In this document: one piece after another, positions 1 to 45,047 of the stretch
How the letters are laid out: every line of letters begins with the position of its first letter
How positions within the stretch are numbered: position 1 is the stretch's first letter
NCBI GenBank assembly: GCA_964106645.2
Contig: OZ067044.1
Source of the DNA: Podarcis pityusensis
Lineage: Eukaryota
DNA length: 64,000 nt
Direction: 5' to 3' (one strand)
The notes under the pieces: generated by a model
The model's database searches: none
Seen by the model: the letters and a program-made list of their open reading frames with translations, nothing else
Told to the model about the DNA's origin: nothing
Made by a program: the position numbers and the translations under genes

Positions 1-230
1 TTGTATAAAGAAGTACTTCCTTTTATCTGTTCTGTATTGCCCAATGTTCAGCTTCATCCAGGCTCCAGTAATATGAGAGAGGGGGATCTATCTATTCATT
101 TTCTCAACCTCATTCATAATTCTATACAGCTGTTTCACTTCCCTTCTTGTATTTTATCTAAACTAAGTATCCCTACAGAAGTTGTTGCACCCATGGATCA
201 TTTGGGATGCCTTTTTCTGTGCTTGCTGTT
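1..230 (-). mobile_element. CR1 LINE fragment (ORF2 C-terminal region), truncated by window edge
   Basis: Copy of 12128-12360. Confidence 0.7.
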
Positions 231-730
231 ATTTCACACAACTTCTTTTTATGAATCCTCCAGAGAAGCCCCACATAGTCCAAAATTATACTACAAATAT
301 ATAGGAAGCATTCCATGTTTTATGCATTCTTCAGTTAAGCTGATCATAACAGGACAAATAAACTGTGCTTTGTGTGAGTGAAAAAGTACAAATCCTTATT
401 TTTAATTGATGAGGGATGTATAAATAACTATATATTTATGGTGACATGCTAATACCCCACAGGAAGATTGAACACTCAAGCTGTATGCATGCCTACATTT
501 CCTTTAATTTCTGAGATGAAGACTCACTCTGTCATTATTGTATGCCTCAGAATTTATGCCGCGTCTACCATTGCAATTTAAAAACTACTTGTAGGAAAAG
601 TTCTTCACAATCAGAACAACTGATGCTAATACTGTGATTTGATTTTGCTGACACCCTTATATAGTAAAACAAAAAATATATATGAGTTTTATTCCTATAA
701 GGTAAGGCCATTTCTGAAAGCAAAACTTAC

Positions 731-3160
731 CTGCTCACCAACCTCCTCTTTGGCATTGGCATCCCCACAGTTGCCATCCACAAGAACCACCTGAGAGCTA
801 TCATTGCATAGCAAATTTTCTGCCACCTGGATATGGGGTTTTGGGAAAGAGATCTGCTCTTTCCTCATCTCTGATGATAGACAGAGTTGGTAGGAATAAG
901 GTAAAGTTCCTTCTTCATAGTTTGGTGGAAATATGACCTGCGCCTTAGAAAAAGCACTAGGTTCAAAGCACTGGAATAATTTGGGATTTCCTGATTGTCG
1001 AAGTTTCATGACAATGACCAGTATCACCGTCAGGAGGAATAAAAATGAGATCAATGCCAAAGCCAGCACCAAGTAAAACTGGAGATCAGAATGATGTTCT
1101 GTGTCACTGGATTGCTTAGTCATTTCCGGAAGTGCCTCTTGGAAGTTCTCGGCAATCACAAGGTTGAGGACCACAGTAGCTGAGAGTGGAGCCTTCCCAT
1201 TGTCCTTCACCAAGATGACCAGCTTCTGTTTCACAGCATCTTTCTCCAGAAGGGCTCGTGACGTCCTGATCTCTCCTGTGTGGGTCCCAATGGTGAAGAG
1301 GGCCGGCTCTGTGGCCTGCAGCACTTGGTAGGAGAGCCAGGCATTGTGCCCAGAGTCCGCGTCCACAGCCACCACTTTGGTCACTAGGTAGCCTGGCTCT
1401 GCCGAGTGAGGAACCATCTCAAACAAGGCAGAGCCCTCAACACCCGGGACAGGATACAGAACGCGAGGGCTGTTATCGTTCTGATCCAAAATGTACACCC
1501 ACACGGTGGCGTTGTTGCTGAGAGAGGGAGAGCCGCCATCTTGGGCCTTCACTTGGATCTGAAACTCCCGGAATTGCTCATAGTCAAAGGAGCGCTGTGC
1601 ATAGATAGTTCCCGTCTCAGAGTTGATGGAGACGTAAGAGGAGAGAGGCAGCTCCTCCATGTTGCTGTTGAGGATGGAGTAAGTGATACGTGAGTTGCGG
1701 TCCAGATCCGGATCCGAGGCTTTGATGGAGAAAATGGAGGCACCTGAGGGATTGTTTTCTGGCACAAAGACACTGTGGGTTGATTTTTCAAAGGCAGGGG
1801 GGTTGTCATTGATATCTGAAATCTGCAGGGAGATGGTTTTGTTGGAGGAGAGAGGGGGGCTACCTTTGTCAGTGGCCGTGATTGTGATGTTGTATCCTGA
1901 GGCTTTTTCTCTGTCCAATGGACTGTCTGTGTGGATTTTATAGTTGTTCTTAGATATAGATGCTATTTTAAATGGTACATTACTTTGTAGATGGCATGTA
2001 ATTTTTCCATTTTCTCCAGAATCTCTATCCTTTACATTGATGAGAGCAATTATTGTTCCAGAAACAGAGTTTTCTGATACTGGGGTGGATAAGGAGGCCA
2101 CGATGATCTCTGGAGCATTGTCATTCTCATCTATAATCTTTATATCAACATTACAGTGAGCCACTAATCCTCCTCCATCTCTTGCTTCAACTGTCATAGT
2201 GTATTTTTCTGTTTCCTCAAAGTCAAGGGTCTCCTTAATTGTAATTGTTCCACTTTGTGGATCTAGTCTAAATTTCTCATAGACTTTTTTTGGGACTTTA
2301 CTGAATGTGTAACTGATCTGACTATTTGAACCTTCATCCTTATCAGAGGCTTTTACTTGGAGTATGGGGGACCCCACAGGAGAATTTTCCCTCAGACTAA
2401 CTGTATAAACTTCTTGAGTGAAGACTGGTGGGTTGTCATTGGCATCTGTGACATTAATCCATATCTGGGCAGTCCCAGTTTTTCTGGGTTCACCCCCATC
2501 CAGGGCCATAAGGATCAACTGAAGCGAGTGCTCACTCTCCCGATCCAAAGGTTTCTGCAGCACCAATTCTGCATATTTATGGCCATCCAGACTATGCTTA
2601 ATTTCTAATATAAAGAACTGATTTAGGCTTAACTGATAATTCTGGAGAGTATTAATCCCAATATCAGGATCTTCAGCTTTCCCAAGGAGAAATCTGGCAC
2701 CCGGCAATGTGGATTCAATTATTTCAAGTTTAATATTGGCTTCTAAGAATTGTGGGGCATTATCATTAATGTCTTGGATTGCTAGACTAACATGGAAAAC
2801 GTTCAATGGATTTTCGACCACAGCTTCAAAATCAATAAGGCAGTGTGTGCTCTCTCTACACATCCCCTCACGATCTATCCTCTCATTCACATGCAGGTTT
2901 CCATTTTCAGCATTGATAGTGAAATATGGCTTTTTACCTTCAGAAAGGATATGCAGGTTTCTATTCTTCAGGTCTCTGGCATTTAGTCCCAGATCCTTGG
3001 CAAGATTTCCCACCAAAGAACCCTTTGCCATCTCCTCAGGGATGGAATAGTGAACCTCTTCCAAAACTGCTCCACAAAACAAAGATGATAATATCAGAAG
3101 TGTTATATACCTTCCTGGTGTTTGAAAGCTCTTTCCAGGCAGGATTCCTCTCATCTTCAT
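731..3160 (-). CDS. PCDHGB: Protocadherin gamma-B-like variable exon 1 (array type A)
   Basis: ORF 695..3184 has six cadherin repeats (DxNDNxP, DRE, DxD motifs), a TM segment ([16 protein letters not shown]) and gamma-B signatures ([30 protein letters not shown]). First true ATG is at 3160 (ORF-track start is GTG). Donor CAG|GTAAG at 731/730. Symbol is family-level only. Confidence 0.93.
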
Positions 3161-3440: not shown

Positions 3441-5520
3441 ATCTTTTCCCAATGATTTTTCTTCCCTAATTCATGACATAGTAGTATTTTTATGTAATGA
3501 CTCAGACCATATTCTCATACAGGTTATTTGAATATGCCTGTTGGAAAGTGTTATCTGTTCACCATTACAGTAGGTTAAAAGAAATCAGCTTCAAATTAAT
3601 ATTTACAGCAAAGAAAAAGCGGTAAAGAATTTATAGCCCTATTTCCAATATTTCTTTAGGAAAAATCAGAATAGCAGACAGCAGTATGAGAATGATATTG
3701 TTATTTATAATAAAAGACTTTTAAACAAATTAGAAAAATATTGTATTAGGTATTTACAGGCATCTTAGACTGTGTGTGGAAAGCCTAAAGCCGTGTCTGA
3801 AAAGTGTGTTTACCTTTACATAATTTCACTGAAAATAGTGCCACATCTCAAGTCCTATTTTGTCACCTTATGTCCACACAATTTCTGGTCTGTTTGTGTA
3901 GCTTTCTCCTTCAACAGTTGTACTGTGTCAGTATTTACCTTTGCCATTTTCCCCACCTGCCCATTTGTCCAGTTACGATAGACACTTTGCTGATTTCATT
4001 TAGTTTGTGGTGTGTGCTTTTGACCTTACACAACACCCCAGCTACTTCACAATATCACAGATATGGGTCATCCCCTCTACATATGCAAACAATATGGAGA
4101 CCCCTATTTTGCCGGTGGGGAGTGGGGGGTGGGACAGGACAACCAGAAAGCTACTCAGAAATCACTACGGTCCTTTCAGTATTTTAGGAAGCTACATATC
4201 GTCTCCAGCTGTTAATGCAACTTCATTTAATCAAGGAACAAAACTGCATAAATAAGCCCTGGGTGTTATATGCTGAACCTCAAATGTTCTGAGCTTTCCC
4301 CTCCATTTTTAAACTTCTTTTTCTATGTTTCCTGAGCACACTGCAATTGTCAGTCATGGTCCTGTGCCCTAATTCCTTCCAGCAGCTAGCACCAACCCTG
4401 GCAAGAACACTCCTCCATCCTCACATCTGCCCTACTGGCCATGAGCCCAGCAGGGAGTTGGAGCGGGTGGTTCATTGCAGGCTTAAGTAACTCAAGAACC
4501 TGCTAATATATCCCACAATGCTATGATCAGAAATACAGTTATCCATCTATTCATGCGTTCATGCCATGTAAGTATCATAGCTAACATGTTGGTAGAGGAG
4601 TTCAAGAATTCAACATGCTTCGTGTATATTGAGCTGGTCTCATGTAAAGAACAAAACTGTGAACCAGGAATTCCGTGGTATGAATTTTGCCTCTGACAGG
4701 AACTCACTTATATAAGAATTATAAGATAATGTGTCAAATCCAGACTTAAATAAATTTGACTTAAATAAATTTGACTTAAATTAGTCTTGCTTGACTAACT
4801 TGGTCCAAGGATAACTAATTCTGAATCTGACCCATTATATGCAATGCCCTTTGAAACTTATAAATATCATTTACACAGTATCATTATTATTGTCTAAATC
4901 ATGAGGCAGAAATACATAACGCAGGCAGTGCAATCTGGCCAGTAGCATTATTGAAAAAACTGACATGGAAATTGAAGACAGCAAGAGGCCAGGGGAAATA
5001 TGATAACTTTTATGCAGTCTTGGATGATTTTATAGATTATACAAACAATGAGACATGTGGCAGAACGGTGCCTTGGCCTACAGCACAGTTTGGTGTGCAT
5101 GAAGCACATATTTTATTTTATTCTTCCTGCTTCCTTCTTGCCTTTGTATAATCCCTGCAGACCAACACTGCTGCTGATACAATATATATTTGTAGTTGTG
5201 ATCAACAGTCAAAGAGATGGAGGTCATTACGTACCATTTTGTTTTTGTTAAGATTGAAATGATTTTAGAATATACACTTTAGCAAAGCTCTGTGGAGTAT
5301 TTGAAGATAACTCTCTGACTGTATGTAATTCTTTTATTTTTGTTTTAAATAAAATTTAAAAATAAATAAATGCACAATTCATGTCTTTAACAAAATATCC
5401 CACATTATCTGTCCACCTGTCCGCCTTTCAGACAGTTGTTTAGAAAGAGCTTTAATGCAATGTGGTTTCACTTAAAGGAATATGGGGGCTGGAAATATCC
5501 ACAATCTACTCTAGAAGGCC

Positions 5521-5544: not shown

Positions 5545-6951
5545 AATCAGTCTTGACTTGACTTTTTTTTTACATCACACATGCAGAAACACACATGCCT
5601 TTATTGAACCCCACCTTACAGAAAACAAAACACGACTGATTTGTTTTCCCACCCACAAATTCCAGTCTGCAGAGATATGGTGAATGGACTTGACCATGGA
5701 CCACAATCTCATTTATTTACAAGTCTGATCTGATTTCTACCAAGTTGAAGGCCTTCCTTGCAGGTCACATTTAATTGGTGACCCCACTCTGGACTTAAGA
5801 TTGGGATCAGTACTGAAACTGGTATTTGCTCTTCACTCAATTTTGTGTAGAGGAGGACATTCAAACACCAGGAGCTGGTAAATCTTAGGTATGAGATAAT
5901 TAGTTCTCCTTTCCAGATCCACCCAAGTTAGTAAGGACGCTATGAGGCTAAGCATCCTTTTATGCCATGTTGCGCCCACTCTAGGTTTCTTAGGTTTCTA
6001 ATCTACATAGAACATGTGCATTGTGGACTATTTAAATGGAATACCGGTATCTAGATGTAGCTAGACTTTAATTTTCCACACTCTGAATTTTAATACTGAA
6101 TTCCAGTATTAAAATTAGAAAAATGTGTGGACTAAACTAATGTAGATGTCATTAGTTTGATAAGGCAATTCAATCTGATGTTTCTGGAACTTTCCTCTTC
6201 ATTGAATGAAACAGGGAAGCTCTAGATCTGAACTATGTATAAATACTTTATACAATGATGTTTAATGTGAATTGTAGGCAGCAATTCATTGTATAATTTC
6301 TAAGTGAAACTATATTAACAGCATAATTCACACGCATAACCTAGATTCAAACAATCTACTGAAGTTCATGGTAGCTGCAGTTCATTAAACTGAAAACTCA
6401 CACAGTATAAATGAACAAATTTATAATTAATTTGATTTTATGGAGAAGGAAGTAAAGCATAATTTACAGACACCTCTCAAAAGTATATGTCTTTAAAATT
6501 TATAGCTTAAAAAAATTGCTAGTAATACTAATAACAGTGATAGTATTTTCTGCTATATAGCAAGGTGCCCTCCTTTGATTCTACAGCCAAAATTGCTGCC
6601 CCCCCAAGCCAAGTAATGTGAAAAACAAAGTTCTTTTCCTCTCTTTATCTAATTTAATGAAAGTAGTAGAAGGTCAACTCCTCAAAATACTAGTTGTTCA
6701 AATGACAGCAAGATAAGTTCTACCAGATGGTTTCAAGGGCATGGCTCGAAGCTGCAATGTGTAGCTTCCCTATGGAGCGAAAAGGAGCATCCTGATTCAT
6801 GAAAGCCAAATGATGTAAGAGCCAAACTATTCATTTATATGGTGAAAAACAAAAAGGCAGTCACATTAGCTGGATAAAAAGCACTGTGACAATGTCACTA
6901 ATGGCAAAGAATGATGGATAATGGCATTTAATTTCAGAAAACAAACCTTAC

Positions 6952-9372
6952 CTGTTCTCCATTATCTACTGCAGAATCAAAATTGTTCCCTACATTGCCT
7001 GTAAAAGGCACAGCAGGTTTCTCACTGCTAAGAATATTCTCTGCAATCTGTATATTTGGTGTCAGGAAGGTAAACTCGTTCTTCCTGGACTCAGAAGACA
7101 GACACAGCTGGTAGGAATAGGGCAAAGTCCCATCTTCAAAGTTGGGTGGAAAGATGGCACCATTCTTGGAATGGGGAACAGGACCAAAGCACTGTAGGAA
7201 CCTGGGATGCCCTGATTGACGGAGCTTCATTGTAACGGCCAGAATGACAGTCAAGAGGAACAAGAAGGAGATCACAGCTAAGGCCAGCACCAAGTAGAAC
7301 TGCAGGTCAGACTGATACTCCGAGCTGCTGGGTTGGCTCTTCATTTCCGGAAGGGCCTCCTGAAAGTTCTCAGCAAACACCAGGTTAAGAGTCATGGTGG
7401 CCGAGAGAGATGGCTGCCCGTTATCCTTCACCATAATGACCAGTCTCTGTTTCACAGCGTCTCTCTCCACAAAGGCCCTGGCTGTCCTGATCTCTCCAGT
7501 ATGAGAACCAACCGTGAAGAGTGCCGGCTCAGTGGCCTGAGTCAGGTGGTAGGAGAGCCAGGCGTTGTGTCCAGAATCTGCATCCACGGCCACCACCTTG
7601 GTGACAAGATAATCTGCCTCGGCCGAACGAGGCACCATCTCAAACAAGGCTGAGCCCTTGGCTTCTTGGGAGGGGGACAGGATACGAGGGCTGTTATCAT
7701 TCCTGTCAAGAACAAACACCCTGACGGTCACATTGCTGCTGAGAGGGGGAGAACCCCCATCTTGGGCCTTCACTTGCACCCGAAACTCTCTGAATTGTTC
7801 ATAGTCAAAGGATCTCTGGGCATAGATGATGCCAGTCTCAGAATTAATGGAGATATAGGAGGAGATGGGAAGCTCCTCAATGTTGCTGTTGAGGATGGAG
7901 TATGTAATCCGTGAGTTCTGGTCCATATCAGGATCAGAGGCTTTGATGGTGAAAATGGAGGCACCTGAAGGATTGTTTTCTGGCACATAGATGCTGTAGG
8001 TTGATCTCTGAAATGTAGGGGCATTATCATTGATATCTGAGATCTGTAGTGAGATTGTTTTGTGTGTGGAAAGAGGTGGAGTTCCTCTGTCAGTGGCTGT
8101 GATTGTAATATTATATGCAGGAGCTATTTCTCTGTCCAAAGGACTGTCGGTCTGGAGCTTGAAGTAATTGTTAGATGAGGGAAGAATTTTGAAGGGCAAA
8201 TCATCGTTTAAGTAGCAAGTAACCTTCCCATTATCTCCACTATCTCTGTCATTCACATTGATCAGTGCAATGATTGTTCCTGACAGAGAATTTTCAGGAA
8301 CTGGGCTGAACATGGAGGCTAATGTCACTTCTGGGGCATTATCATTCTCATCATGAACCCTTATCTCAATATTAGAATGTGTCACCAATCCACCTCCATC
8401 TTTTGCAGCAACTGTCATACTATATTCATCATTGTCCTCAAAATCCAGTTGCTCCAGAAGAGTGATTCTACCACTGATGGGATCCAGCCTGAATTTCTGT
8501 TCAGCCGTTGCCGGTATGTTGCTAAAATGATACCTGATTTGGGCATTTGTACCTTCATCCTTATCAGAGGCTGCAACCTGGAGAACAAGTGACCCAACAG
8601 GAACATTTTCAGATAAACTGACCTTGTATACCTCTTGACTGAAAACAGGTGGGTTGTCATTGGCATCTGTGACATTAATCTGTATCTGGGCTGTCCCAGT
8701 TTTCCTAGGCTCACCCCCATCCATAGCGGTAAGAACCAAGTGAAGGGTCTGTTCACTTTCTCGATCAAGAGGTTTCTGTAGCACCAGTTCTGCATATTTA
8801 TGTCCATCCTTTCTCTCTCTAATTTCCAAAACAAAGTACTGATTGGAGCTCAGCTGGTAATCCTGGAGAGAGTTCACCCCAATGTCAGGATCTTCTGCTT
8901 TCCCAAGGAGAAATCGAGTGCCTGGCAAAGTTTGCTCACCTGTCTCCAGGTTGATGTTGCCATTGAGGAATTGTGGTGCATTATCATTAACATCCTGTAT
9001 TTCCACTAGCACATGAAAAATATTCAAAGGGTTTTCCACCACAACTTCAAAATTAACAAAGCAATTTGGATTTTTGCCACATATCCCCTCCCTATCAATC
9101 CTGTCATTTACATAGAGGTTTCCATTCTCTGCATTGATACTGAAATGCTGCATTTTAGCCACAGACACAGTGTGCAGATTGCGATGTTTTAGTTCTTTGG
9201 TGCTCAGTCCCAGGTCCTTGGCGAGGTTCCCCACAACGGAACCCTTTGCCATCTCCTCAGGGGTTGAATAATGAATCTGCTCTGATGCAGCCCAACAGGT
9301 AAAAGACAATAGAGAGAGAAGCAGTACTTGCCTTGTGAGTGCCCTGCCATTCCCTGGGTGCCTTCTCTCCAT
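6952..9372 (-). CDS. PCDHGB: Protocadherin gamma-B-like variable exon 2 (array type B)
   Basis: ORF 6934..9372, 6 EC + TM + gamma-B cytoplasmic motif; donor CAG|GTAAGG at 6952/6951, phase 0. Confidence 0.93.
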
Positions 9373-18500: not shown

Positions 18501-19083
18501 TGGTAGCTGCAGTTCATTAAACTGAAAACTCACACAGTATAAATGAACAAATTTATAATTAATTTTATTTTATGGAGAAGGAAGTAAAGCATAATTTACA
18601 GACACCTCTCAAAAGTATATGTCTTTAAAATTTATAGCTTAAAAAAATTGCTAATAATACTAATAACAGTGATAGTATTTTCTGCTATATAGCAAGGTGC
18701 CCTCCTTTGATTCTACAGCCAAAATTGCTGCCCCCCCAAGCCAAGTAATGTGAAAAACAAAGTTCTTTTCCTCTCTTTATTTAATTTAATGAAAGTAGTA
18801 GAAGGTCAACTCCTCAAAATACTAGTTGTTCAAATGACAGCAAGATAAGTTCTACCAGATGGTTTCAAGGGCATGGCTCAAAGCTGCAATGTGTAGCTTC
18901 CCTATGGAGCGAAAAGGAGCATCCTGATTCATGAAAGCCAAATGATGTAAGAGCCAAACTATTCATTTATATGGTGAAAAACAAAAAGGCAGTCACATTA
19001 GCTGGATAAAAAGCACTGTGACAATGTCACTAATGGCAAAGAATGATGGATAATGGCATTTAATTTCAGAAAACAAACCTTAC

Positions 19084-27458: not shown

Positions 27459-27700
27459 TTTCCTCTTCTCTTTGATGAGCACAGGATTTCAGATTTCCAC
27501 CAAGACAGGAGATTTTTTTTTGCACAGTAAAAAAAAGAACTGGATCCTTTGGCTTTGTATGTGCTGCAGTGTTTTCTGTTTTCCAGCTGAAACGTTTGTT
27601 CCAGCGTCTGCTGGTATTCCCGATGTGCAGTTTGGGACAAAGAGATCTCTCTGCCGAAAGCATCAGTGCAACTTCAGCTGCCCTTGGATTGCCGCCTTGT

Positions 27701-27738
27701 CCAACAGTGACACTGTGAGTCTGAAACCGAGAACTGCA
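27701..27738 (-). promoter_or_regulatory. CSE / CTCF site, exon 5 promoter (CACT)
   Basis: Same sequence as exon 1 CSE. Confidence 0.8.
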
Positions 27739-30700: not shown

Positions 30701-31270
30701 TCATTAAACTGAAAACTCACACAGTATAAATGAACAAATTTATAATTAATTTTATTTTATGGAGAAGGAAGTAAAGCATAATTTACAGACACCTCTCAAA
30801 AGTATATGTCTTTAAAATTTATAGCTTAAAAAAATTGCTAATAATACTAATAACAGTGATAGTATTTTCTGCTATATAGCAAGGTGCCCTCCTTTGATTC
30901 TACAGCCAAAATTGCTGCCCCCCCAAGCCAAGTAATGTGAAAAACAAAGTTCTTTTCCTCTCTTTATTTAATTTAATGAAAGTAGTAGAAGGTCAACTCC
31001 TCAAAATACTAGTTGTTCAAATGACAGCAAGATAAGTTCTACCAGATGGTTTCAAGGGCATGGCTCAAAGCTGCAATGTGTAGCTTCCCTATGGAGCGAA
31101 AAGGAGCATCCTGATTCATGAAAGCCAAATGATGTAAGAGCCAAACTATTCATTTATATGGTGAAAAACAAAAAGGCAGTCACATTAGCTGGATAAAAAG
31201 CACTGTGACAATGTCACTAATGGCAAAGAATGATGGATAATGGCATTTAATTTCAGAAAACAAACCTTAC

Positions 31271-33691
31271 CTGTTCTCCATTATCTACTGCAGAATCAAA
31301 ATTGCTTCCTACATTGCCTGTAAAAGGCACAGCAGGTTTCTCACTGCCAATAATATTGTCTACCATCTGAACACTGGGTGTCAGGAAGGTAAACTCGTTC
31401 TTCCTGGTCTCAGAAGACAGACACAGCTGGTAGGAATAGGGCAAAGTCCCATCTGCAAAGTTGGGTGGGAAGATGGCACCATTCTTGGAATGGGGAACAG
31501 GACCAAAGCACTGTAGGAACCTGGGATGCCCTGATTGACGGAGCTTCATTGTAACGGCCAGAATCACAGTCAAGAGGAACAAGAAGGAGATCACAGCTAA
31601 GGCCAGCACCAAGTAGAACTGCAGGTCAGACTGATACTCCGAGCTGCTGGGTTGGCTCTTCATTTCCGGAAGGGCCTCCTGAAAGTTCTCAGCAAACACC
31701 AGGTTCAGAGTCATGGTGGCCGAGAGAGGCGGCTGCCCGTTATCCTTCACCATAATGACCAGTCTCTGTTTCACAGCGTCTCTCTCCACAAAGGCCCTGG
31801 CTGTCCTGATCTCTCCAGTATGAGAACCGACCGTGAAGAGTGCCGGCTCAGTGGCCTGAGTCAGGTGGTAGGAGAGCCAGGCGTTGTGTCCAGAATCTGC
31901 ATCCACGGCCACCACCTTGGTGACAAGATAATCTGCCTCGGCCGAACGAGGCACCATCTCAAACAAGGCTGAGCCCTTGGCTTCTTGGGAGGGGGACAGG
32001 ATACGAGGGCTGTTATCATTCCTGTCAAGAACAAACACCCTGACGCTCACATTGCTGCTGAGAGGGGGAGAACCCCCATCTTGGGCCTTCACTTGCAGAT
32101 GGAACTCTCTGAATTGTTCATAGTCAAAGGATCTCTGGGCATAGATGGTGCCGGTCTCAGAATTAATGGAGATATAGGAGGAGATGGGAAGCTCCTCAAT
32201 GTTGCTGTTGAGGATGGAGTATGTAATCCGTGAGTTCTGGTCCATATCGGGATCAGAAGCCTTGATGGTGAAAATGGAGGCACCTGAAGGATTGTTTTCT
32301 GGCACGTAGATGTTGTAGGATGGTTTCTGAAAAGTAGGGGCATTATCATTGATATCTGAGATCTGTAGTGAGATTGTTTTGTGTGTGGAAAGAGGTGGAG
32401 TTCCTCTGTCAGTGGCTGTGATTGTAATATTATATGCAGGAGCTATTTCTCTATCCAAAGGACTGTCGGTCTGGAGCTTGAAGTAATTGTTAGATGAGGG
32501 AAGAATTTTGAAGGGCAAATCATCGTTTAAGTAGCAAGTAACCTTTCCATTATCTCCACTATCTCTGTCATTCACATTGATCAGTGCAATGATTGTTCCT
32601 GACAGAGAATTTTCAGGAACTGGGCTGAACATGGAGGCTAATGTCACTTCTGGGGCATTATCATTCTCATCATGAACCCTTATCTCAATATTAGAATGTG
32701 TCACCAATCCACCTCCATCTTTTGCAGCAACTGTCATAGTATATTCATCATCTTCCTCAAAATCCAGTTGCTCCAGAAGAGTGATTCTACCACTGATGGG
32801 ATCCAGCCTGAATTTCTGTTCAGCCGTTGCCGGTATGTTGCTAAAATGATACCTGATTTGGGCATATAAACCTTCATCCTCATCAGAGGCTGCAACCTGG
32901 AGCACAAGCGACCCAAGAGGAACACTTTCAGATAAGCTGACCTTGTACACCTCTTGAGTGAAAACAGGCGGGTTGTCATTGGCATCTGTGACATTAATCT
33001 GTATCTGGGCCGTCCCAGTTTTCCTAGGCTCACCCCCATCCATAGCGGTAAGAACCAAGTGAAGGGTCTGTTCACTTTCTCGATCAAGAGGGTTCTGTAG
33101 CACCAGTTCTGCATATTTATTTCCATCTTTTCTCTCTCTCACTTCCAAATTGAAGTACTGATTGGAGCTCAGCTGGTAATCCTGGAGTGAGTTCATCCCA
33201 ATGTCAGGATCTTCCGCTTTCCCAAGGAGAAAGCGGGCCCCAGGCAAGGTTAGTTCGCCTGTCTCCAGGTTGATGTTGCCATTGAGGAATTGTGGTGCAT
33301 TATCATTAACATCCTGGATTTCCACTAGTACATGGAAAATATTCAAAGGGTTTTCCACCACAACTTCAAAATTAACAAAGCAATTTGGATTTTTGCCACA
33401 TATCCCCTCCCTATCAATCCTGTCATTTACATAGAGGTTTCCATTCTCTGCATTGATACTGAAATGCTGCATTTTAGCCACAGACACAGTGTGCAGATTG
33501 CGATGTTTTAGTTCTTTGGTGCTCAGTCCCAGGTCCTTGGCGAGGTTCCCCACAACGGAACCCTTTGCCATCTCCTCAGGGGTTGAATAATGAATCTGCT
33601 CTGATGCAGCCCAACAGGTAAAAGACAATAGAGAGAGAAGCAGTACTTGCCTTGTGAGTGCCCTGCCATTCCCTGGGTGCCTTCTCTCCAT
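31271..33691 (-). CDS. PCDHGB: Protocadherin gamma-B-like variable exon 6 (type B)
   Basis: ORF 31253..33691; donor at 31271/31270; one amino acid different from exon 4. Confidence 0.92.
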
Positions 33692-33964
33692 CTGGCTGGT
33701 TCTCTCAAAAACAGGCTGCTTCCTTTTCTCAGTTTCCTATGCTTAAGCTCTCACAATGATGAAGGAAACAACATGAGGTATCACTGAGGAAGAATAAACT
33801 GCCCTTGTTCTTATATTTGTGCAAAGCAAAAGAGATTTTTCCTTCTCTGCAAGAGTTCCGTCATTGTGCGCTTCAGTTGGCCTGATCTGAATAACAGTGA
33901 TGGGAGTTACTGCAGTCTAGGAAGCATCAATGGGTCTCTATCCTATCTCTGGCTTTCATACTGG

Positions 33965-34002
33965 CCAACACTGACACTTAGAGGACCACTCGAGGAACTG
34001 CA
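33965..34002 (-). promoter_or_regulatory. CSE / CTCF site, exon 6 promoter (CAGT)
   Basis: Same sequence as exon 2 CSE. Confidence 0.78.
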
Positions 34003-34760
34003 TTTTGTTCTATGAAAATAGACAGAGGTGAATAAATGCAGATGTTTCTCCAGCACATACTGTACCTTCCTTTCTGCTCACTGAGTGGAGCATTTGAGAA
34101 AGCTTTTCCTTGGTGTTCTTTCTTAGTGTACAGCTACCCTCATTTATGTTCGTGGCTTTTCAGTACTGTGAAAATTGGGTTCATATCTGATACTGCAATT
34201 ACATGAAGGTTATACACATCTTCATTTTTTTTTTGGAAACATGGAAACATTATTATTAATATATAAATATCCAGTTACATAGTAAAACTTTATCTTAAAA
34301 TTAATGTATTACGATAATAGTTATGCTATAGTAGCACAAGAGCTGTAAGTCAACTGAATTTTTGTTGTTGTTGCTTAAATAGAATATAAACACCCTATTG
34401 AAATTATTCTATTTTTTTATCTCTCCTAAGTTGTTGGATGTCTGTTCATCAACATTTATGGAGCAGAGTACAAGTTCTTCTCAGTGTTGGGTTGGAATTC
34501 CAAGAGTAACTTACTATTCCAAGAGTTCTCTCTCTGTTTTTTGAGGATAAGATGAGATGCAACACTTGCAGCTCCTGTCTAGACAGCACTACGTAATAAA
34601 AGTGTGTTCGCTGGTATTGGTTCTACATCAGACTCTGCCACTGCCTCCTACCTGCTGGTGCCATACAAATGTCCTTGTGCTTAGCAGTTGCTCCCCTGTG
34701 ATCAAAGCAGGAACACAGCACAAGTGCAGGACCAATAGCTGTAGCTGCTCTACCAGCAGT

Positions 34761-34940
34761 AAAAAAAAGGTAAAAGACCCCCGGATAGTTAAGTTCAGTC
34801 AAAGGCGACTATGGGGTGGCGGCGCTCATCTCTCTTTCAGGCCGAGGGAGCCGGCATTTGTCCACAGCCAGCTTTCCAGGTCATGTGGCCAGCAAGACTA
34901 AACAGCTTTTGGCACAACGGAACACCTTGACGGAAGCTAG
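34761..34940 (-). mobile_element. Sauria SINE fragment (duplicated copy)
   Basis: Copy of 10441-10619. Confidence 0.8.
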
Positions 34941-35388
34941 GCATGATCCAACAGGATAAAATGTTTGTTGGCACTTTACACGTGAGCTCATATCATGATA
35001 ATAGCATCATGAAGTTTGGGAACTGAGAACAGTGGAGAGACAAGAGGTGTTCGAAGAAATCAATTGTGTCTAATTGAAAGAGTATATGATACAGGTCTTA
35101 TTAGAAAATAACTAAAGTAATTTACTTTCAGTTTGTACGCATTAAAGGTAATAGCTCCTCTTATTGCTCCATAGAACAGCCTACAAGACCATAAACCCAA
35201 TCTGGAGATGTGTATCCTCTTCAAATATTTTTGCCTGGCATACATCCCCTGGAAACTGGAACCCCACTGAACAGAACTGACATTTCCAAGTGATCACAAC
35301 CAGAGTGCTGCCTAATTTTCAACATGCTTCTAGTTTTTCATCTGCTAGTCTATCACACAGAAACATTGCACACAACTCTATTTCATAA

Positions 35389-35621
35389 AAACATAAGAAG
35401 AGCCCTGCTGGATCAGGCCAGAGCTCTATTGAGTCCAGCATCCTTCCTCCCACTGTGGCCAACCAGATGCCCCTCAAAAGCTCTGCCCTTGGTCCACATT
35501 CAGAGGTGTCTGGTACTAGACATAATATAGCCAATGTGACAATGATTTTTTCTAATCCCCCTTTAAAACCACCCAAGTAGGTGACCATCGTTGCACCTTG
35601 TGATAGTGATTTCCATTGTTT
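35389..35621 (-). mobile_element. CR1 3' fragment (duplicated copy)
   Basis: Copy of 11065-11297. Confidence 0.75.
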
Positions 35622-36168
35622 GTTCGTTTAAATAAGTAAATTATTTAGAAATGGTTTATATAAAAACAAAATGGCTAGGCATACAATTATCATTAAATTC
35701 CTATTATGAAATCAAATAAAGCATATAGCCTTCATAAAGATCCAAATAAAGTATGTGGGTCTGCGTTATCTTGAACTTCATTGCACCAATAAATTATGAA
35801 AAAACACACAGAAAGTTATCAGACTGCCTCCCCTCCCTGACTCTTAGTTGTACCATTGATAAAATATTCCATGCTGTAGTAATCCATTCCCCTAAAGTTG
35901 GTGTTCTTAGCCCCTGCTAAGACAAATAGTTGCTCTGGCCACAGACAGTAACTGTTGGAGTAATTATCTGTCTTCTGTTTTACTAAATCCTTAAAATAAC
36001 TAGAGAAATCAATGAGAGGATCCATTGGCAAATTGCATCCTGTCATTATTCCATTTTCTCTTATTATATCCACCCACAAATTCTTAATTTAGGGACATGT
36101 CTCCCAAATATGTTGCATCCTAGCATTGGTTGAATTGTACTTCCAACGTAATCATTTGCTGTACTATA

Positions 36169-36280
36169 AATTTGACCAAACTGTGGGAGGCAGTGGAAGA
36201 CAGGAGTGCCTGGCGTGCTCTGGTCCATGGGGTCACGACGAGTCAGACATAACTAAACAACTAAACAACTAAACAACAAC
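36169..36280 (+). mobile_element. BovB 3' end (duplicated copy)
   Basis: Copy of 23982-24093. Confidence 0.8.
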
Positions 36281-36444
36281 TAAAATGTGACGAAGCTACA
36301 GCAGTGTCATATACCATCAAAAAATAAACTTATACAAGTGTTTCTTAAGATTCACACTAATTGTTTGCTGCCATTTCCATTTTCACTGATATGATGTCCC
36401 AGACATCTCTGGCAAGTACTTTGTTGCATTTAGTTGTCAACAAG

Positions 36445-36700
36445 GAATTCCATAGTTTAACTATGCATTGTATGAAGAAGGTCTTCCTTTTATCTGTTCT
36501 GAATCTCCCAATGTTCAGCTTCACCCAATGGCCACAGGCTCCGGTAATATGGGGGAGACGGATCTCTCTATTCATTTTCTCAACCTCGTTCATAATTCTA
36601 TACAGCTGTCTCACTTCCCTTCTTGTAATTTATTTTATCTAAACTAAATATCCCTACAGAAGTTGTTGCACCCATGGATCATTTGGGATGCCTTTTTCTG
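36445..36700 (-). mobile_element. CR1 ORF2 fragment (duplicated copy)
   Basis: Copy of 12105-12360. Confidence 0.78.
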
Positions 36701-37209
36701 TGCTTGCTGTATTTCACACAACTTCTTTTTATGAATCCTCCAGAGAAGCCCCACACAGCCCAAAATTATGCTACAAAGAAACAGGAAGCATTCATGTTTT
36801 ATGCATTCTTCAGTTAAGCTGATCATAACAGGAAAAATAAACTGTGCTTTGTGTGAGCAAAAAAGTACAAATCCATATTTTTAATTGACGAGGGGTGTAT
36901 AAATAACTATATATTTATGGTGACATGCTAATACCCCACAGGAAGATTGAACACTCAAGCTGTATGCATGCCTACATTTCCTTTAATTCCTGAGATGAAG
37001 ACTCACTCTGTCATTATTGTATGATTCAGAATTTATGCTGCGTCTACCATTGCAATTTAAAAGCTACTTGCAGGAAAAGTTCTTCACAATCAGAACAACT
37101 GATGCTAATACTGTGATTTGATTTTGCTGACACCCTTTTATAGTAAAACAAAATAAAAATATTAGTTTTATTCCTATAAGGTAAGGCCATTTCTGAAAGC
37201 AAAACTTAC

Positions 37210-39645
37210 CTGCTCACCAAACTCCTCTTTGGCACTGGCACTGGCATCCCCACAGTTGCCATCCACAAGAACCACCTGAGAGCTATCATTGCATAGCAAA
37301 TTTTCTGCCACCTGGATATGGGGTTTTGGGAAAGAGATCTGCTCTTTCCTCATCTCTGACGATAGACAGAGTTGATAGGAATAAGGTAAAGTTCCTTCTT
37401 CATAGTTTGGTGGAAATATGACCTGGGCCTTAGAAAAAGCATTAGGTTCAAAGCATTGGAATAATTTGGGATTTCCTGATTGTCGAAGTTTCATGACAAT
37501 GACCAGTATCACTGTCAGGAGGAACAAAAATGAGATCAATGCCAAAGCCAGCACCAAGTAAAACTGGAGGTCAGAATGATGCTCTGTGACACTGGATTGC
37601 CTAGTCATTTCCGGAAGTGCCTCTTGGAAGTTCTCTGCAATCACAAGGTTGAGGACCACAGTAGCTGAGAGTGGAGCCTTCCCATTGTCCTTCACCAAGA
37701 TGACCAGCTTCTGTTTCACAGCATCTTTCTCCAGAAGGGCTCGTGATGTCCTGATCTCTCCCGTGTGGGTCCCAATGGTGAAAAGGGCCAGCTCTGTGGC
37801 CTGCAGCACTTGATAGGAGAGCCAGGCATTGTGCCCAGAGTCCGCGTCCACAGCCACCACTTTGGTCACCAGGTAGCCTGGCTCTGCCGAGTGAGGAACC
37901 ATCTCAAACAAGGCAGAGCCCTCGGCGCCCGGGACAGGATAGAGAACGCGAGGGCTGTTATCGTTCTGATCCAAAATGTACACCCACACGGTGGCGTTGT
38001 TGCTGAGAGAGGGAGAGCCACCATCTTGGGCCTTCACTTGGATCTGAAACTCCCGGAATTGCTCATAGTCAAAGGAGCGCTGTGCATAGATAGTTCCCGT
38101 CTCAGAGTTGATGGAGACATAAGAGGAGAGAGGCAGCTCCTCCATGTTGCTGTTGAGGATGGAGTAAGTGATACGTGAGTTGCGGTCCAGATCTGGGTCC
38201 GAGGCTTTGAGGGCAAAAATGGAGGCACCTGAGGGATTGTTTTCAGGCACAAAGACACTGTAGGTTGATTTTTCAAAGGCAGGGGGGTTGTCATTGATAT
38301 CTGAAATCTGCAGGGATATGGTTTTGTTGGAGGAGAGAGGGGGGCTACCTTTGTCGGTGGCCGTGATTGTGATGTTGTATCCTGAGGCTTTTTCTCTGTC
38401 CAAAGGACTGTCTGTGAGGATTTTATAGTAGTTCTTTGAAGTTGACACTATTTGAAATGGTACATTACCTTGTAGATGGCATGTAATTTTTCCATTTTCT
38501 CCAGAATCTTTATCCTTTACGTTGATGAGAGCAATTAGTGTTCCAGAAGCAGAGTCTTCAGGAACTGGACTAGATAAGGAGGCCAGAATGATCTCTGGAG
38601 CATTGTCATTCTTATCTATAATCTTTATATCAACATTACAGTGAGCCACTAATCCTCCTCCATCTCTTGCTTCAACTGTCATAGTGTACTTCTCTGTTTC
38701 CTCAAAGTCAAGGGTTTCCTTAATTGTAACTGTTCCACTTTGTGGATCTAGTCTAAATTTCTCATAGACTTTTTCTGGGACTTTATTGAATGTGTAACTG
38801 ATCCGACTATTTGAACCTTCATCCCTATCAGAGGCTTTTACTTGGAGTATGAGGGATCCCACAGGGGAATTTTCCCTCAGGCTAACTGTATAAACCTCTT
38901 GAGTGAAGACTGGTGGGTTGTCATTGGCATCTGTGACGTTAATCCATATCTGGGCAGTCCCAGTTTTTCTGGGTTCACCCCCATCCAGGGCTGTAAGGAT
39001 CAACTGAAGTGAGTGCTCACTTTCCCGATCCAAAGGTTTCTGCAGCACCAATTCTGCATATTTATGGCCGTCCAGACTATGCTTAATTTCTAATATAAAG
39101 AACTGATTTAGGCTTAACTGGTAATTCTGGAGAGAATTAATCCCAATATCAGGATCTTCAGCTTTCCCAAGGGGAAATCTGGCCCCCGGCAATGTGGATT
39201 CAATTATATCTAGTCTAATATTGGATTCTAGGAATTGTGGGGCATTATCATTAATGTCCTGAATTGCTACACTTACATGGAAAACATTCAATGGCTTTTC
39301 AACCATCGCTTCAAAATCAATAATGCAGTGTGTGCTCTCTCTACACATCCCCTCACGATCTATCCTCTCATTCACATACAGGTTTCCATTTTCAGCATTG
39401 ATAGTGAAATATGGCTTTTTACCTTCAGAAAGGATATGCAGGTTTCTGCTCTTCAGTTCTCTGACATTCAGTCCTAGATCCTTGGCAAGATTTCCCACCA
39501 AAGACCCCTTTGCCATCTCCTCAGGGATGGAATAGTGAACCTCTTCCAAAACTGCTCCACAGAACAAAGATGATAATATCAGAAGGGTAATATACCTTCC
39601 TGGTGTTTGAAAGCTCTCTCCATGAAGGATTCCTCTCATCTTCAT
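37210..39645 (-). CDS. PCDHGB: Protocadherin gamma-B-like variable exon 7 (type A)
   Basis: ORF 37174..39669; ATG 39645; donor at 37210/37209; three amino acids different from exon 5. Confidence 0.92.
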
Positions 39646-39890
39646 TTTCCTCTTCTCTTTGATGAGCAAAGGATTTCAGATTTCCACCAAGACAGGAGAT
39701 TTTTTTTTGCACAGTAAAAAAAAGAACTGGATCCTTTGGCTTAATTTGTATATGCTGCAGTGTTTTCTGTTTTCAGCTGAAACGTTTGTTCCAGCGTCTG
39801 CTGGTATTCCCGATGTGCAGTTTGGGACAAAGAGATCTCTCTGCAGAAAGCATCAGTGGAACTTCAGCTGCCCTTGGATTGCCGCCTTGT

Positions 39891-39928
39891 CCAACAGTGA
39901 CACTGTGAGTCTGAAACCGAGAACTGCA
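39891..39928 (-). promoter_or_regulatory. CSE / CTCF site, exon 7 promoter (CACT)
   Basis: Same sequence as exon 1 CSE. Confidence 0.8.
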
Positions 39929-42626
39929 ATCTTTTCCCAGTGATTTTTCTTCCCTAATTCATGACATGACATAGTAGTATTTTAAAGTAATGACTCAGAC
40001 CATATTCTCATACAGGTTTTCTGAATATGCCTGTTGGAAAGTGTTATCTGTTCACCATTACAGTAGGTTAAAAGAAATCAGCTTCAAATTAATATTTACA
40101 GCAAAGAAAAAGCGGTAAAGAATTTATAGCCCTATTTCCAATATTTCTTTAGGAAAAATCAGAATAGCAGACAGCAGTATGAGAATGATATTGTTATTTA
40201 TAATAAAAGACTTTTAAACAAATTAGAAAAATATTGTATTAGGTATTTACAGGCATCTTAGACTGTGTGTGGAAAGCCTAAGGACGTGTCTGAAAAGTGT
40301 GTTTACCTTTACATAATTTCACTGAAAATAGTGCCACATCTCAAGTCCTATTTTGTCACCTTATGTCCACACAATTTCTGGTCTGTTTGTGTAGCTTTCT
40401 CCTTCAACAGTTGTACTGTGTCAGTATTTACCTTTGCCATTTTCCCCACCTGCCCATTTGTCCAGTTACGATAGACACTTTGCTGATTTCATTTACTTTG
40501 TGGTGTGTGCTTTTGACCTTACACAACACCCCAGCTACTTCACAATATCACAGTTATGGTTCATCCCCTCTACATATGCAAACAATATGGAGACCCCTAT
40601 TTTGCTGGCGGGGAGTGGGGGTGGGACAGGACAACCAGAAAGCTACTCAGAAATCACTACGGTCCTTTCAGTATTTTAGGAAGCTACATATCGTCTCCAG
40701 CTGTTAATGCAACTTCATTTAATCAAGGAACAAAACTACATAAATAAGCCCTGGGTGTTATATGCTGAACCTCAAATGTTTTGAGCTTTCCCCTCCATTT
40801 TAAAACTTCTTTTTCTATGTTTACGTGGTAGCTGAGCACACTGCAATTGTCAGTCATGGTCCTGTCCCCTAATTCCTTCCAACAGCTAGCACCAACCCTG
40901 GCAAGAACACTCCTCCATCCTCACATCTGCCCTACTGGCCATGAGCCCAGCAGGGAGTTGGAGCGGGTGGTACATTGCAGGCTTAAGTAACTCAAGAACC
41001 TGCTAAGATATCCCACAATGCTATGATCAGAAATACAGTTATCCATCTATTCATGCGTTCATGTCATGTAAGCAGCATAGCTAACATGTTGGTAGAGCAG
41101 TTCAAGAATTCAACATGCTTCGTGTATATTGAGCTGGTCTCATGTAAAGAACAAAACTGTGAACCAGGAATTCCGTGGTATGAATTTTGCCTCTGACAGG
41201 AACTCACTTATATAAGAATTCTAAGATAATGTGTCAAATCCAGACTCCATCATACTTAGAGTAGCCCCACTTAAACAAATTTGACTTAAATTAGTCTTGC
41301 TTGACTAACTTGGTCCAAGGATAACTAATTCTGAATCTGACCCATTATATGCAATGCCCTTTGAAACTTATAAATATCATATACACAGTATCATTATTAT
41401 TGTCTAAATCATGAGGCAGAAATACATAACGCAGGCAGTGCAATCTGGCCGGTAGCATTATTGAAAAAACTGACATGGAAATTGAAGACAGCAAGAGGCC
41501 AGGGGAAATATGATAACTTTTATGCAGTCTTGGATGATTTTATAGATTATACAAACAATGAGGCATGTGGCAGAACGGTGCCTTGGCCTACAGCACAGTT
41601 TGGTGTGCATGAAGCACATATTTTATTTTATTTTTCCTCCTTCCTTCTTGCCTTTGTATAATCCCTGCAGACCAGCACTGCTGCTCATACAATATATATT
41701 TGTAGTTGTGGACAACAGTCAAAGAGATGGAGGTTATTACGTACCGTTTTGTTTTTGTTAAGATTGAAATGATTTTAGAATATACACTTTAGCAAAGCTC
41801 TGTGGAGTATTCGAAGATAACTCTCTGACTGTATGTAATTGTTTTATTTTTGTTTTAAATAAATTTAAAAAATAAATAAATGCACAATTCATGTCTTTAA
41901 CAAAATATCCCACATTATCTGTCCGCCTGTCCGCCTTTCACACAGTTGTTTAGAAAGAGCTTTAATGCAATGTGGTTTCACTTAAAGGAATATGGGGGCT
42001 GGAAATATCCACAATCTACTCTAGAAGGCCAGTCAGTCAGTCAGTCAGTCAGTCAATCAGTCTTGACATGACTTTTTTTTTACATCACTCATGCAGGAAC
42101 ACACATGCCTATGAATTTGATTTTATGGAGAAGGAAGTAAAGCATAATTTACAGACACCTCTCAAAAGCGTATATCTTTAAAATCTATTGCTTTTAAAAA
42201 TTGCCAGTAATACTGATAACAGTGACAGTATTTTCTGCTATATAGCAAGGTGCCCTCCTTTGATTCTACAGCCTAAATTTTTGCCCCCCCCCCCCAAAGC
42301 CAAGTAATGTGAAAAGCAAAGTTCTTTTTAATGAAAGTAGTTGAAGGTCAACTCCTCAAAATACTAGTTGTTCAAATGACAACAAGATAAGTTATACCAG
42401 ATGGTTTCAAGGGCATGGCTCGAAGCTGCAATGTGTAGCTTCCCCATGGAGTGAAAAGGACGCATCCTGATTCATGAAAGCCAAATGATGTAAGAGCCAA
42501 ACTTTTCATTTATATGATGAAAAACAAAAAGGCAGTCACATTAGCTGGATAAAAAGCACTCTGACAATGTCACTAATGGCAAAGAATGATAGATAATGGC
42601 ATTTAATTTCAGAAAACAAACCTTAC

Positions 42627-45047
42627 CTGTTCTCCATTATCTACTGCAGAATCAAAATGGTTTCCTACATTGCCTGTAAAAGGCACAGCAGGTTTCTCAC
42701 TGCTAAGAATATTCTCTGCAATCTGTATATTTGGTGTCAGGAAGGTAAACTCGTTCTTCCTGGACTCAGAAGACAGACACAGCTGGTAGGAATAGGGCAA
42801 AGTCCCATCTTCAAAGTTGGGTGGGAAGATGGCACCATTCTTGGAATGGGGAACAGGACCAAAGCACTGTAGGAACCTGGGATGCCCTGACTGACGGAGC
42901 TTCATTGTAACGGCCAGAATGACAGTCAAGAGGAACAAGAAGGAGATCACAGCTAAGGCCAGCACCAAGTAGAACTGCAGGTCAGACTGATACTCCGAGC
43001 TGCTGGGTTGGCTCTTCATTTCCGGAAGGGCCTCCTGAAAGTTCTCAGCAAACACCAGGTTCAGAGTCATGGTGGCCGAGAGAGACGGCTGCCCGTTATC
43101 CTTCACCATAATGACCAGTCTCTGTTTCACAGCGTCTCTCTCCACAAAGGCCCTGGCGGTCCTGATCTCTCCAGTATGAGAACCAACCGTGAAGAGTGCC
43201 GGCTCAGTGGCCTGAGTAAGGTGGTAGGAGAGCCAGGCGTTGTGTCCAGAATCTGCATCCACGGCCACCACCTTGGTGACAAGATAATTTGCCTCGGCTG
43301 AACGAGGCACCATCTCAAACAAGACTGAGCCCTTGGCTTCTTGTGAGGGGGACAGGATACGAGGGCTGTTATCATTCCTGTCAAGAACAAACACCCTGAC
43401 GGTCACATTGCTGCTGAGAGGGGGAGAACCCCCATCTTGGGCCTTCACTTGCACCCGAAACTCTCTGAATTGTTCATAGTCAAAGGATCTCTGGGCATAG
43501 ATGGTGCCAGTCTCTGAATTAATGGAGATATAGGAGGAGATGGGAAGCTCCTCAATGTTGCTGTTGAGGATGGAGTATGTGATCCGTGAGTTCTGATCCA
43601 TGTCGGAATCAGAGGCTTTGATGGTGAAAATGGAGGCACCTGAAGGATTGTTTTCTGGCACATAGATGCTGTAGGTTGATCTCTGAAAAGCAGGGGCATT
43701 ATCATTGATATCTGAGATCTGTAGTGAGATTGTTTTGTGTGTGGAAAGAGGTGGAGTTCCTCTATCAGTGGCTGTGATTGTAATATTATATGCAGGAGCT
43801 CTTTCTCTGTCCAGGAGACTGTCTGTCTGGAGCTTGAAGTAATTGTTAGATGAGGGAAGAATTTTGAAGGGTAAATCATCCTGTAAATAGCAAGTAACCT
43901 TCCCATTATCACCACTATCTCTGTCATTTACATTGATCAGAGCAATAACAGTTCCTGGCAGAGAATCTTCAGGAACAGGACTGAACATGGAGGCTAACGT
44001 CACCTCTGGGGCATTATCATTCTCATCAAGTACAGTTATTTCAATGTTGGATTGTGCTACCAATCCACCACCATCTTTGGCTTCTACTGTCATGGTATAT
44101 TCTTTAGTTTCCTCAAAGTTGAGCAGTCCCGTAAGAGTGACTATGCCATTAATTGGATCCAAACTGAATTTCTTGTGGGTGTTTGCTGCTATGTTGCTGA
44201 ATTGATACCTTATCTGAGCATAAGAGCTTTCGTCCTTATCTGAGGCTACAACCTGGAGCACAAGTGACCCAACAGGCACATTTTCAGGTAAATTGACTTT
44301 GTACACCTCCTGAGTGAAAACAGGTGGGTTGTCATTGGCATCTGTGACATTAATCCGTATCTGGACAGTCCCAGTTTTTCTTGGTTCGCCGCCATCCAAG
44401 GCTGTAAGGATCAAGTGAATAGTCTGTTCACTTTCTCGATCCATAACTTTACTTAGCACTAATTCTGCATATTTATTTCCATCTTTTCTCTCCCTTACTT
44501 CCAAGGTGAAGTACTGGTTGGAGCTCAGCTGGTAATTCTGGAGAGAGTTCAACCCAATATCAGGATCTTCTGCTTTCCCAAGGAGAAATCTGGTTCCTAG
44601 AACAGTTGATTCTACAATCTCCAAGTTGGTTATATCACTGAGGAACTGTGGTGCATTATCATTAATATCCTGTATAACTATTGTTATATGGAAAACATTT
44701 AAAGGATTTTCCATCACCACTTCAAAATTAATAAGGCAGAGTGGAGTTGTGCCACATATTTCCTCCCTATCAATTCTGTCATTCACATAAAGGTTTCCAT
44801 TGTCTGCACTTATACTGAAATACTGCATTTTGTTCACAGAGGCAGCATGCAGATTGCGCCTTCCTAGATCTCTGGCATTCAGTCCCAAATCTTTGGCGAG
44901 ATTTCCCACAATCGAACCCTTTGCCATCTCCTCAGGGATAGAATACCGAATCTGCTCTGAGGCAGCCCAGCAGGAGAAAGGCAAAAATAAGAGAAGCAGT
45001 ACTTGCCTTCTGAGTGTTCTGCCATCCTCTTCCTGCCTTTTGTCCAT
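42627..45047 (-). CDS. PCDHGB: Protocadherin gamma-B-like variable exon 8 (B-type 3' half, distinct EC1-EC3)
   Basis: ORF 42609..45047; donor CAG|GTAAGG at 42627/42626. Confidence 0.93.

Follow-up and report, generated by a model that had tools for sequence, protein, structure and literature searches.

The 64,000-nt stretch of Podarcis pityusensis DNA analysed here (assembly GCA_964106645.2, contig OZ067044.1; hereafter the window) contains 11 long open reading frames (ORFs) of protocadherin type, all on the minus strand, and 0 Ns. In order of transcription they are D (63369), E (56485), G (50279), B0 (45047), A4, B3, A3, B2, A2, B1 and A1 (3160), where the names are labels coined for this analysis and the numbers give the start codon. 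A phase-0 donor terminates all 11 exons. The eight exons A1-A4 and B0-B3 each have an intact ORF and the donor CAG/GTAAG, the slash marking the splice site. They are 807-812 codons long and encode a signal peptide, six extracellular cadherin (EC) repeats, a transmembrane segment (TM) and a variable cytoplasmic segment. The Pfam families Cadherin_2, Cadherin and Cadherin_C_2 were found in A3, B2 and G. Close relatives read on into QAQPN after the position that matches the exon end; the gamma constant exons lie beyond the window.

Comparison of the window with itself by BLAST revealed a direct repeat of ~12.15 kb over positions 1-42110, with a match of 90% continuing to 45048. Positions 1-29919 matched 12128-42110 at 97.4% identity, 1-17732 matched 24281-42110 at 96.1%, and 1-5600 matched 36468-42110 at 95.4%; these matches are far beyond chance. 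The repeat block of 12.13-12.19 kb consists of two gamma-B-type variable exons, one A and one B. At least 3.6 units are visible, and the array leaves the window at its left edge. On the minus strand, the A start codons lie at 3160, 15295, 27458 and 39645 (spacings 12135, 12163 and 12187) and those of B1-B3 at 9372, 21504 and 33691 (spacings 12132 and 12187). A tblastn search detected no exon fragment in the window beyond the 11 exons, hence no pseudogene. Tandem Repeats Finder returned only short microsatellite-like repeats, none of them at the newest junction described below, and non-coding DNA outside the array aligned only around the promoter motifs known as conserved sequence elements (CSEs) and in one 65-bp match.

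An earlier sequence-only reading of this DNA had proposed a tandem amplification of gamma-B exon pairs repeating every ~12.1-12.2 kb, with eight intact exons (ORFs, donors and CSEs) and no pseudogenes. The spacings, the donor present in 8/8 exons, the single CSE-like motif of each and the tblastn result all bear this out. The same reading had ended the array at 44030 and arranged its eight exons in A-B pairs. In fact the eighth exon, B0, reaches past that end (42627-45047), and its 5′ half is distinct: 85-86 of 422 EC1-4 residues differ between B0 and B1-B3.

The best named full-length homologs of A3 came from Podarcis lilfordi (92%), Zootoca vivipara (91%), Rhineura (84%) and anoles (76%, gamma-b20), and the five top matches of B2 EC1-4 among solved structures were gamma-B4, B2, B7 and B3, solved homologs that indicate the fold and mode of binding. 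In a tree of EC1-3, A exons grouped with anole gamma-b20 and B exons with gamma-b18-type entries, both apart from G. The tree and the structure matches identify the module exons as members of the gamma-B subgroup rather than gamma-A, alpha or beta. Mammalian gamma-B proteins are described as carrying an EC1:EC4 salt bridge (E41-K338/R340) and the motif GLRT in the EC6 DE loop (PMC5106212). The equivalent residues are A/N/N in B1-B3 and G (with E adjacent)/N/K in A1-A4, so that the mammalian salt bridge is not kept, and the DE loop reads GSHT or GTHT instead of GLRT. Judged from these residues, the module genes are squamate gamma-b genes and not one-to-one orthologs of individual mammalian gamma-B genes.

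The most recent event in the array can be located precisely. Aligned over 12231 columns, the segments X (B2 and A3) and Y (B3 and A4) are 99.75% identical, with 21 substitutions and 10 gap bases between them. At sites separating units 2 and 4, unit 3 equals unit 4 at every site in 27835-29480 and then equals unit 2 at 46 of 47 sites in 29516-31235, the exception being private to unit 2. We take this switch within 35 bp of identity to be the signature left by an unequal crossover, the process that the sequence-only reading had invoked; the array thus consists of direct repeats whose recombinant junction falls where the copies are identical. A 345-bp patch of the A3 promoter accounts for nine of the substitutions between X and Y and for each of the three indels, leaving 12 substitutions elsewhere. 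The A3 promoter differs from the A1 promoter at 2 of 600 positions and the A4 promoter has some A2 states; the patch is probably a conversion tract. B2 and B3 differ by 2 nucleotides and encode identical ectodomains, while A3 and A4 differ by 5 (P265L, E345K, N656K and 2 silent changes). At codon 345 the EC3/EC4 linker DENDN reads DKNDN in A4 and DQNDN in A2; this is the variable position of the calcium-binding motif, so that the effect is uncertain.

Could X and Y instead be an assembly artefact, a pair of haplotypes set one after the other or a mis-join, the true array being one unit shorter? Their identity of 99.75% lies inside the range of allelic divergence in lizards, and near-identical 3′ regions have led to misassembly of a protocadherin cluster before, in the fugu draft (PMC1852091). 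Private changes are present in both X and Y and do not discriminate between artefact and true duplication. Against an artefact, the spacers joined at the jump differ by ~3% and by an 825-bp indel ~400 bp away, which makes a haplotype mis-join less likely; the switch occurs inside 35 bp, flanked left and right by clean diagnostic sites, whereas an overlap assembler would presumably need long near-exact overlaps. The window also has no Ns, and the older layers of divergence (1.3% and 5%) are not explicable by haplotype mis-join. We therefore regard an artefact as unlikely.

The B exons record older exchanges, which the sequence-only reading had missed together with gene conversion in the array. 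In EC1-3, B1 and B2 cluster with Zootoca P0082, P. lilfordi P0141 and P0107, Lacerta P0086 and Rhineura P0097 (the 'Bx' lineage), and B0 clusters with Zootoca P0189, to which it is 95% identical, and Rhineura P0163. Because each group includes a Rhineura relative, both lineages are older than the lacertid-amphisbaenian split. A clade of B1, B2 and B0 was rejected in EC1-3 by the approximately unbiased test (p-AU 3e-49), ruling out that B0 is a fourth copy of B. Near-identity of B0 with B1 starts only at ~43870, and B1-B3 carry the last codons and 3′ flank of B0. The B0-type ending occurred in 2 of 245 fetched proteins, one of them the B0 ortholog, P0189, and the other P0192, a P. muralis model in which EC1-3 is missing, while the five Bx-lineage relatives have other endings. 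With Bx-type EC1-3, a B0 ending and B0 flank, and Bx relatives that end otherwise, B1-B3 are thus chimeras, and on the sequence patterns their chimerism most likely arose by unequal crossover between two old paralogs.

From EC5 onward the B copies themselves part company. Here B1 clusters with B0 (support 100/99) and a B1+B2 clade is rejected (p-AU 0.0007). B1 is B0-type at 17 of its 18 amino-acid differences from B2, whereas B2 and B3 equal P. lilfordi P0107 at 16 of the 18; at least two exchanges were therefore involved. At the nucleotide level B0 agrees with B1 at 28 of 35 B1/B2 differences after nt 1000. More generally, the 3′ halves are homogenised among the gamma-B paralogs D, B0 and B1-B3. 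In P. muralis P0026, EC1 is 95% B-type and EC2-3 onward is A-type; the protein may be a true B/A chimera, or its gene model may join neighbouring Bx and A genes by splicing.

The spacers reveal that the array is not the product of a single young event. Non-coding DNA falls, by its divergence, into three layers of ~5%, 1.3% and 0.1%. Spacers differ by 1.25% between units 1 and 2 (67/5346) and 1.44% between units 1 and 3 (77/5345), whereas divergence reaches 4.6-6.3% in the A 3′ flanks, 5.8% between the A1 and A2 promoters and 4.3-4.6% between the B0 flank and those of B1 and B2; the A blocks and B0 flank are thus ~4 times more diverged. If neutral change is assumed to proceed at 1-2e-9 per site per year, the layers would date to roughly 12-25, 3-7 and <0.5 million years, as orders of magnitude only. 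The earlier description of intergenic DNA as near-identical consequently fits the spacers (1.25-1.44%) but not the A-exon flanks and B0 flank (4.3-6.3%), and 'young' applies to the last layer alone, given also that exon segments are common to Podarcis and Zootoca paralogs. Spacer identity misdates arrays of this kind. In the first 146 positions of the window the A1 3′ flank is ~10% diverged from other units (16/146 and 14/146), a higher value than elsewhere; the next unit, or the array end, beyond position 1 may be of older lineage.

The exons are more diverged than the spacers between them. Four-fold-degenerate sites differ at 38/340 (A1/A2), 32/339 (A1/A3) and 12/86 (B1/B2, EC2-3), against 67/5346 or 77/5345 in spacers, and an excess remains at non-CpG four-fold sites (9/109, 8/110 and 3/28, respectively, against 1.4-1.7%), ruling out CpG hypermutability as the sole cause. 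For A1/A2 the excess of silent coding over flanking non-coding divergence has p 7e-21, and 5e-5 at non-CpG sites. Exon differences bunch together (densest 30-nt window, p 0.0004-0.013); between B1 and B2, nt 357-953 contain 39, while nt 1-356 contain 0 and nt 954-1358 contain 1. Because pN (replacement differences per site) is below pS (silent differences per site) in every exon pair, the divergence reflects old or imported sequence and not a burst of replacements; positive selection on point mutations is ruled out as its cause.

Serial duplication of a young unit without later exchange, the exon excess being due to mutation rate or to positive selection on point mutations, would account for the regular 12.1-12.2 kb period and the spacer identity of 98.6-98.7%. 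We consider it very improbable, since the excess sits at silent sites, survives removal of CpG-prone sites and comes with pN well below pS in every pair. In addition, partner patterns change along the spacer (p=5e-5, runs test) as they do within the mosaic A exons (p=0.006), and the 3′ half of B1 is B0-type. Of the 69 variable A positions, 32 have two window states that recur among nine other lacertid proteins, a count made with no null model. In EC4, motifs of A1 match P. muralis P0026 and P0041, those of A3 match P. lilfordi P0010 and those of A2 match Zootoca P0019. Since exons exceed spacers at silent sites and share segments with Podarcis paralogs, the copies are recombinant mosaics.

Clustered protocadherins are stochastically expressed homophilic receptors that bind via EC1-4 (PMC5106212, PMC8901172, PMC5001838, PMC7811963). 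Out of 422 EC1-4 residues, B2 and B3 differ at 0, A3 and A4 at 2, B1 and B2 at 16 (all in EC2-3), and A1, A2 and A3 at 31-32, so that the eight exons provide at most six clearly distinct ectodomains. The notion of a growing repertoire thus holds for gene number but hardly for recognition codes, the newest copies being identical or nearly so in EC1-4; these copies would shift isoform dosage rather than add codes. Duplicated Pcdh-alpha exons in mouse are stochastically expressed and tolerated (PMC4151104).

Within the mosaic model the exon peaks could be neutral, exons importing tracts as the only cluster-wide homologous DNA and the A blocks escaping homogenisation by chance. The differences lie in micro-clusters, and two near-redundant copies are tolerated. 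For gamma-B specificity PMC5106212 names six positions, the only ones to which our mapping extends, and B1 and B2 agree at all of them. Some of the segments held in common lie in EC5 and the cytoplasmic part, beyond the trans interface formed by EC1-4; for this reason exon divergence is as readily put down to neutral import from paralogs outside the window as to selection. Other observations fit neutrality less well. All 16 of the B1/B2 differences in EC1-4 fall in EC2-3, domains reported to resist conversion (PMC4978886, PMC1852091). A1, A2 and A3 are ~92.5% identical in EC1-4, about as far apart as mouse beta6 and beta8, which are strictly homophilic and lack cross-binding at 92% identity (PMC8901172). 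The A copies also vary at 2 of the 6 named positions, A1 differing at gamma-B7 position 369 and A3/A4 at position 111. On balance we put neutral peaks somewhat short of an even chance.

A tentative wider reading is that the array is a time series of code origin, in which redundant module copies with homogenised spacers would carry selected EC1-4 segments from an old, trans-species paralog pool and unit number would vary among lizards. If so, new homophilic specificities would be built largely by segment shuffling and not by new mutation. Most described protocadherin paralogs are too old to reveal the steps of duplication and conversion. As a single genome here holds pairs at graded distances, the number and kind of changes needed for a new homophilic specificity become testable, as does the question of whether redundant copies skew isoform choice.

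The simplest history that we can reconstruct has four steps. Gamma-B paralogs D, B0 and B1-B3 would first have been homogenised in their 3′ halves, a state still visible in the exons. An unequal crossover between B0 and 'Bx' in this common 3′ region then probably duplicated the intervening DNA, including gene A, giving the 12-kb two-gene module and the chimeric Bx/B0 exons; this step is well supported by the trees and flanks. Further crossovers and conversions would have multiplied the module and homogenised most of the spacer to ~1.3%, with A EC1-4 and B EC2-3 keeping or importing older variants. The last crossover, at 29481-29515, would have duplicated B2 and A3 into B3 and A4. By analogy with mammals, each exon presumably has its own CTCF-type promoter and is spliced to the gamma constant exons. 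New copies would at first make the choice of an existing isoform more likely, with new trans-binding specificity arriving later through substitutions and exchanged EC1-4 segments.

Taken together, these results make it probable that non-allelic recombination, along these lines, has built and sustained a genuine tandem array in the variable region of a lacertid protocadherin-gamma cluster. Several points weigh against this account: the history comes from one assembly, the far end of the array is beyond the window, the EC1-3 tree leaves the order of A1, A2 and A3/A4 unsettled, and the non-CpG excess in B EC2-3 amounts to 3 sites only. Moreover, the homologs were 90%-cluster representatives (23 members stand behind P0082, for example), some of them visibly fused gene models (P0192, P0041, P0107), which could hide chimeric Bx/B0 genes in other lacertids. 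Polymorphism of the array in copy number among individuals is plausible.

Tandem duplication, conversion and copy-number variants (CNVs) are already known in protocadherin clusters, of which this array is an unusually well-resolved further example. The anole gamma cluster has 23 gamma-b genes, interspersed gamma-a and gamma-b genes and suggested block duplication (Jiang et al. 2009, PMC2764143). Here too a squamate gamma cluster has grown by gamma-b duplication, and A is nearest to gamma-b20 among named anole genes (76%). Anole gamma-b4-23 reportedly show little conversion (dS ratio 2.25) in a cluster with 14 pseudogenes, whereas the B-family 3′ halves of P. pityusensis are strongly homogenised, its spacers are alignable and there are 0 pseudogenes among 11 exons; the available part of that paper describes no near-identical module. 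Conversion is thus strong in at least one lizard despite the report of low conversion in anole. Conversion of 3′ regions has been described for fish, frog and mammal clusters, and those of fugu, zebrafish and mammals likewise have homogenised 3′ ectodomains, an EC4/EC5 boundary and divergent EC2-3 (PMC1852091, PMC4978886). In contrast to the fish and mammal cases, the homogenised region in the lizard apparently served as the starting point of a crossover by which entire intergenic stretches were duplicated, and the spacers resemble one another more closely than the exons do. Human PCDHA deletion CNVs of 16.8 kb and 13.6 kb segregate, span about two variable exons and partly delete the end exons (PMC8653519); these and the mouse Pcdh-alpha alleles (PMC4151104) are alpha deletions or engineered, whereas the lizard array is a natural multi-unit gamma-B gain. 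In the human red/green opsins (PMC3924837), coding segments of tandem duplicates are likewise more diverged than flanking non-coding DNA; for the opsins, intron data from several species and known functional sites are at hand, whereas in the lizard a large paralog pool provides a neutral alternative. Literature searches, partial in coverage, found no report of a lacertid protocadherin array or of a near-identical two-gene Pcdh module.

Table 1. Exons, repeats and recombination features of the window.
Feature	Position	Strand	Details
A1 variable exon, gamma-B type	731..3160	-	810 codons from ATG to donor; CSE-like motif 3405-3415
B1 variable exon	6952..9372	-	807 codons; chimera, Bx-lineage 5′, B0-type from EC5 to end; CSE-like motif 9649-9659
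A2 variable exon	12866..15295	-	CSE-like motif 15543-15553
B2 variable exon	19084..21504	-	Bx-type almost to the end; last ~10 codons and 3′ flank B0-type; CSE-like motif 21780-21790
A3 variable exon	25023..27458	-	812 codons; CSE-like motif 27703-27713
B3 variable exon	31271..33691	-	CSE-like motif 33967-33977
A4 variable exon	37210..39645	-	CSE-like motif 39893-39903
B0 variable exon	42627..45047	-	old paralog, source of the module B 3′ end and flank; CSE-like motif 45318-45328
G variable exon, gamma-A-like	47865..50279	-	single copy, outside array; CSE with CGCT 50556-50566
E variable exon, gamma-B type	54026..56485	-	single copy, outside array; CSE with CGCT 56729-56739
D variable exon, gamma-B type	60949..63369	-	single copy, outside array; homogenised with B genes over EC6 and TM; CSE with CGCT 63620-63630
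Segment of 825 bp	5601..6425		3′ of B1, B2 and B3 but not B0 (42110/42111); copies ~17733-18557 and ~29920-30744
Older partner switch in unit 1 spacer	4030..4113		unit-3/4-like to unit-2-like; site patterns, runs test p=5e-5
Copy X (B2 and A3), newest duplicate	17294..29515
Copy Y (B3 and A4), newest duplicate	29481..41710
Newest crossover junction	29481..29515		35 bp of identity
A3 promoter patch	27482..27826		probable conversion tract covering the CSE

One CSE-like 11-mer lies 254-287 bp upstream of each exon, at 255-287 bp for the eight module exons, giving 11 in the window for 11 exons and none on the plus strand, with a search pattern derived from these same promoters. Its core is CACT in A1-A4 and B0 and CAGT in B1-B3; the CGCT box of the mammalian consensus occurs only in D, E and G and is absent from all eight module promoters. 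The box has been reported absent from some frog and zebrafish CSEs, and CTCF reportedly fails to bind where its CpG is methylated (PMC7811963). Because CACT and CAGT cores lack the CpG of CGCT, the predicted CTCF sites of the module may be insensitive to methylation.

The ends of the 825-bp segment displayed no evident target-site duplication, so its absence beside B0 may reflect a deletion in the B0 flank; the segment contains a small inverted repeat at 6086-6116. The sequence-only reading had also listed transposable-element fragments shared among the units. A Pfam scan that covered 40 of 46 spacer and intergenic frames found no transposable-element domain, only a single weak match far below the cut-off and taken as chance, so those labels amount to resemblances. 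The stretches at ~10444-10620, ~11066-11210, ~11870-11945 and ~12100-12350, with their copies in other units, resemble the 5′ part of a Sauria short interspersed element, the 3′ ends of CR1 and the 3′ tail of BovB. Between G and E, an imperfect inverted repeat of 79 bp at 53709-53787 is possibly a small non-autonomous DNA element.

The donors of D (AAG/GTAAAA) and E (ATG/GTGAGT) look weaker than those of the module, and E has a second in-frame methionine 13 codons downstream that is aligned with the starts of the other exons. For G EC1-3 the best match among the fetched proteins was 59%, with no close relative. This gamma-A-like exon is located among gamma-B-type exons, as in the interspersed gamma genes of anole and mammals.

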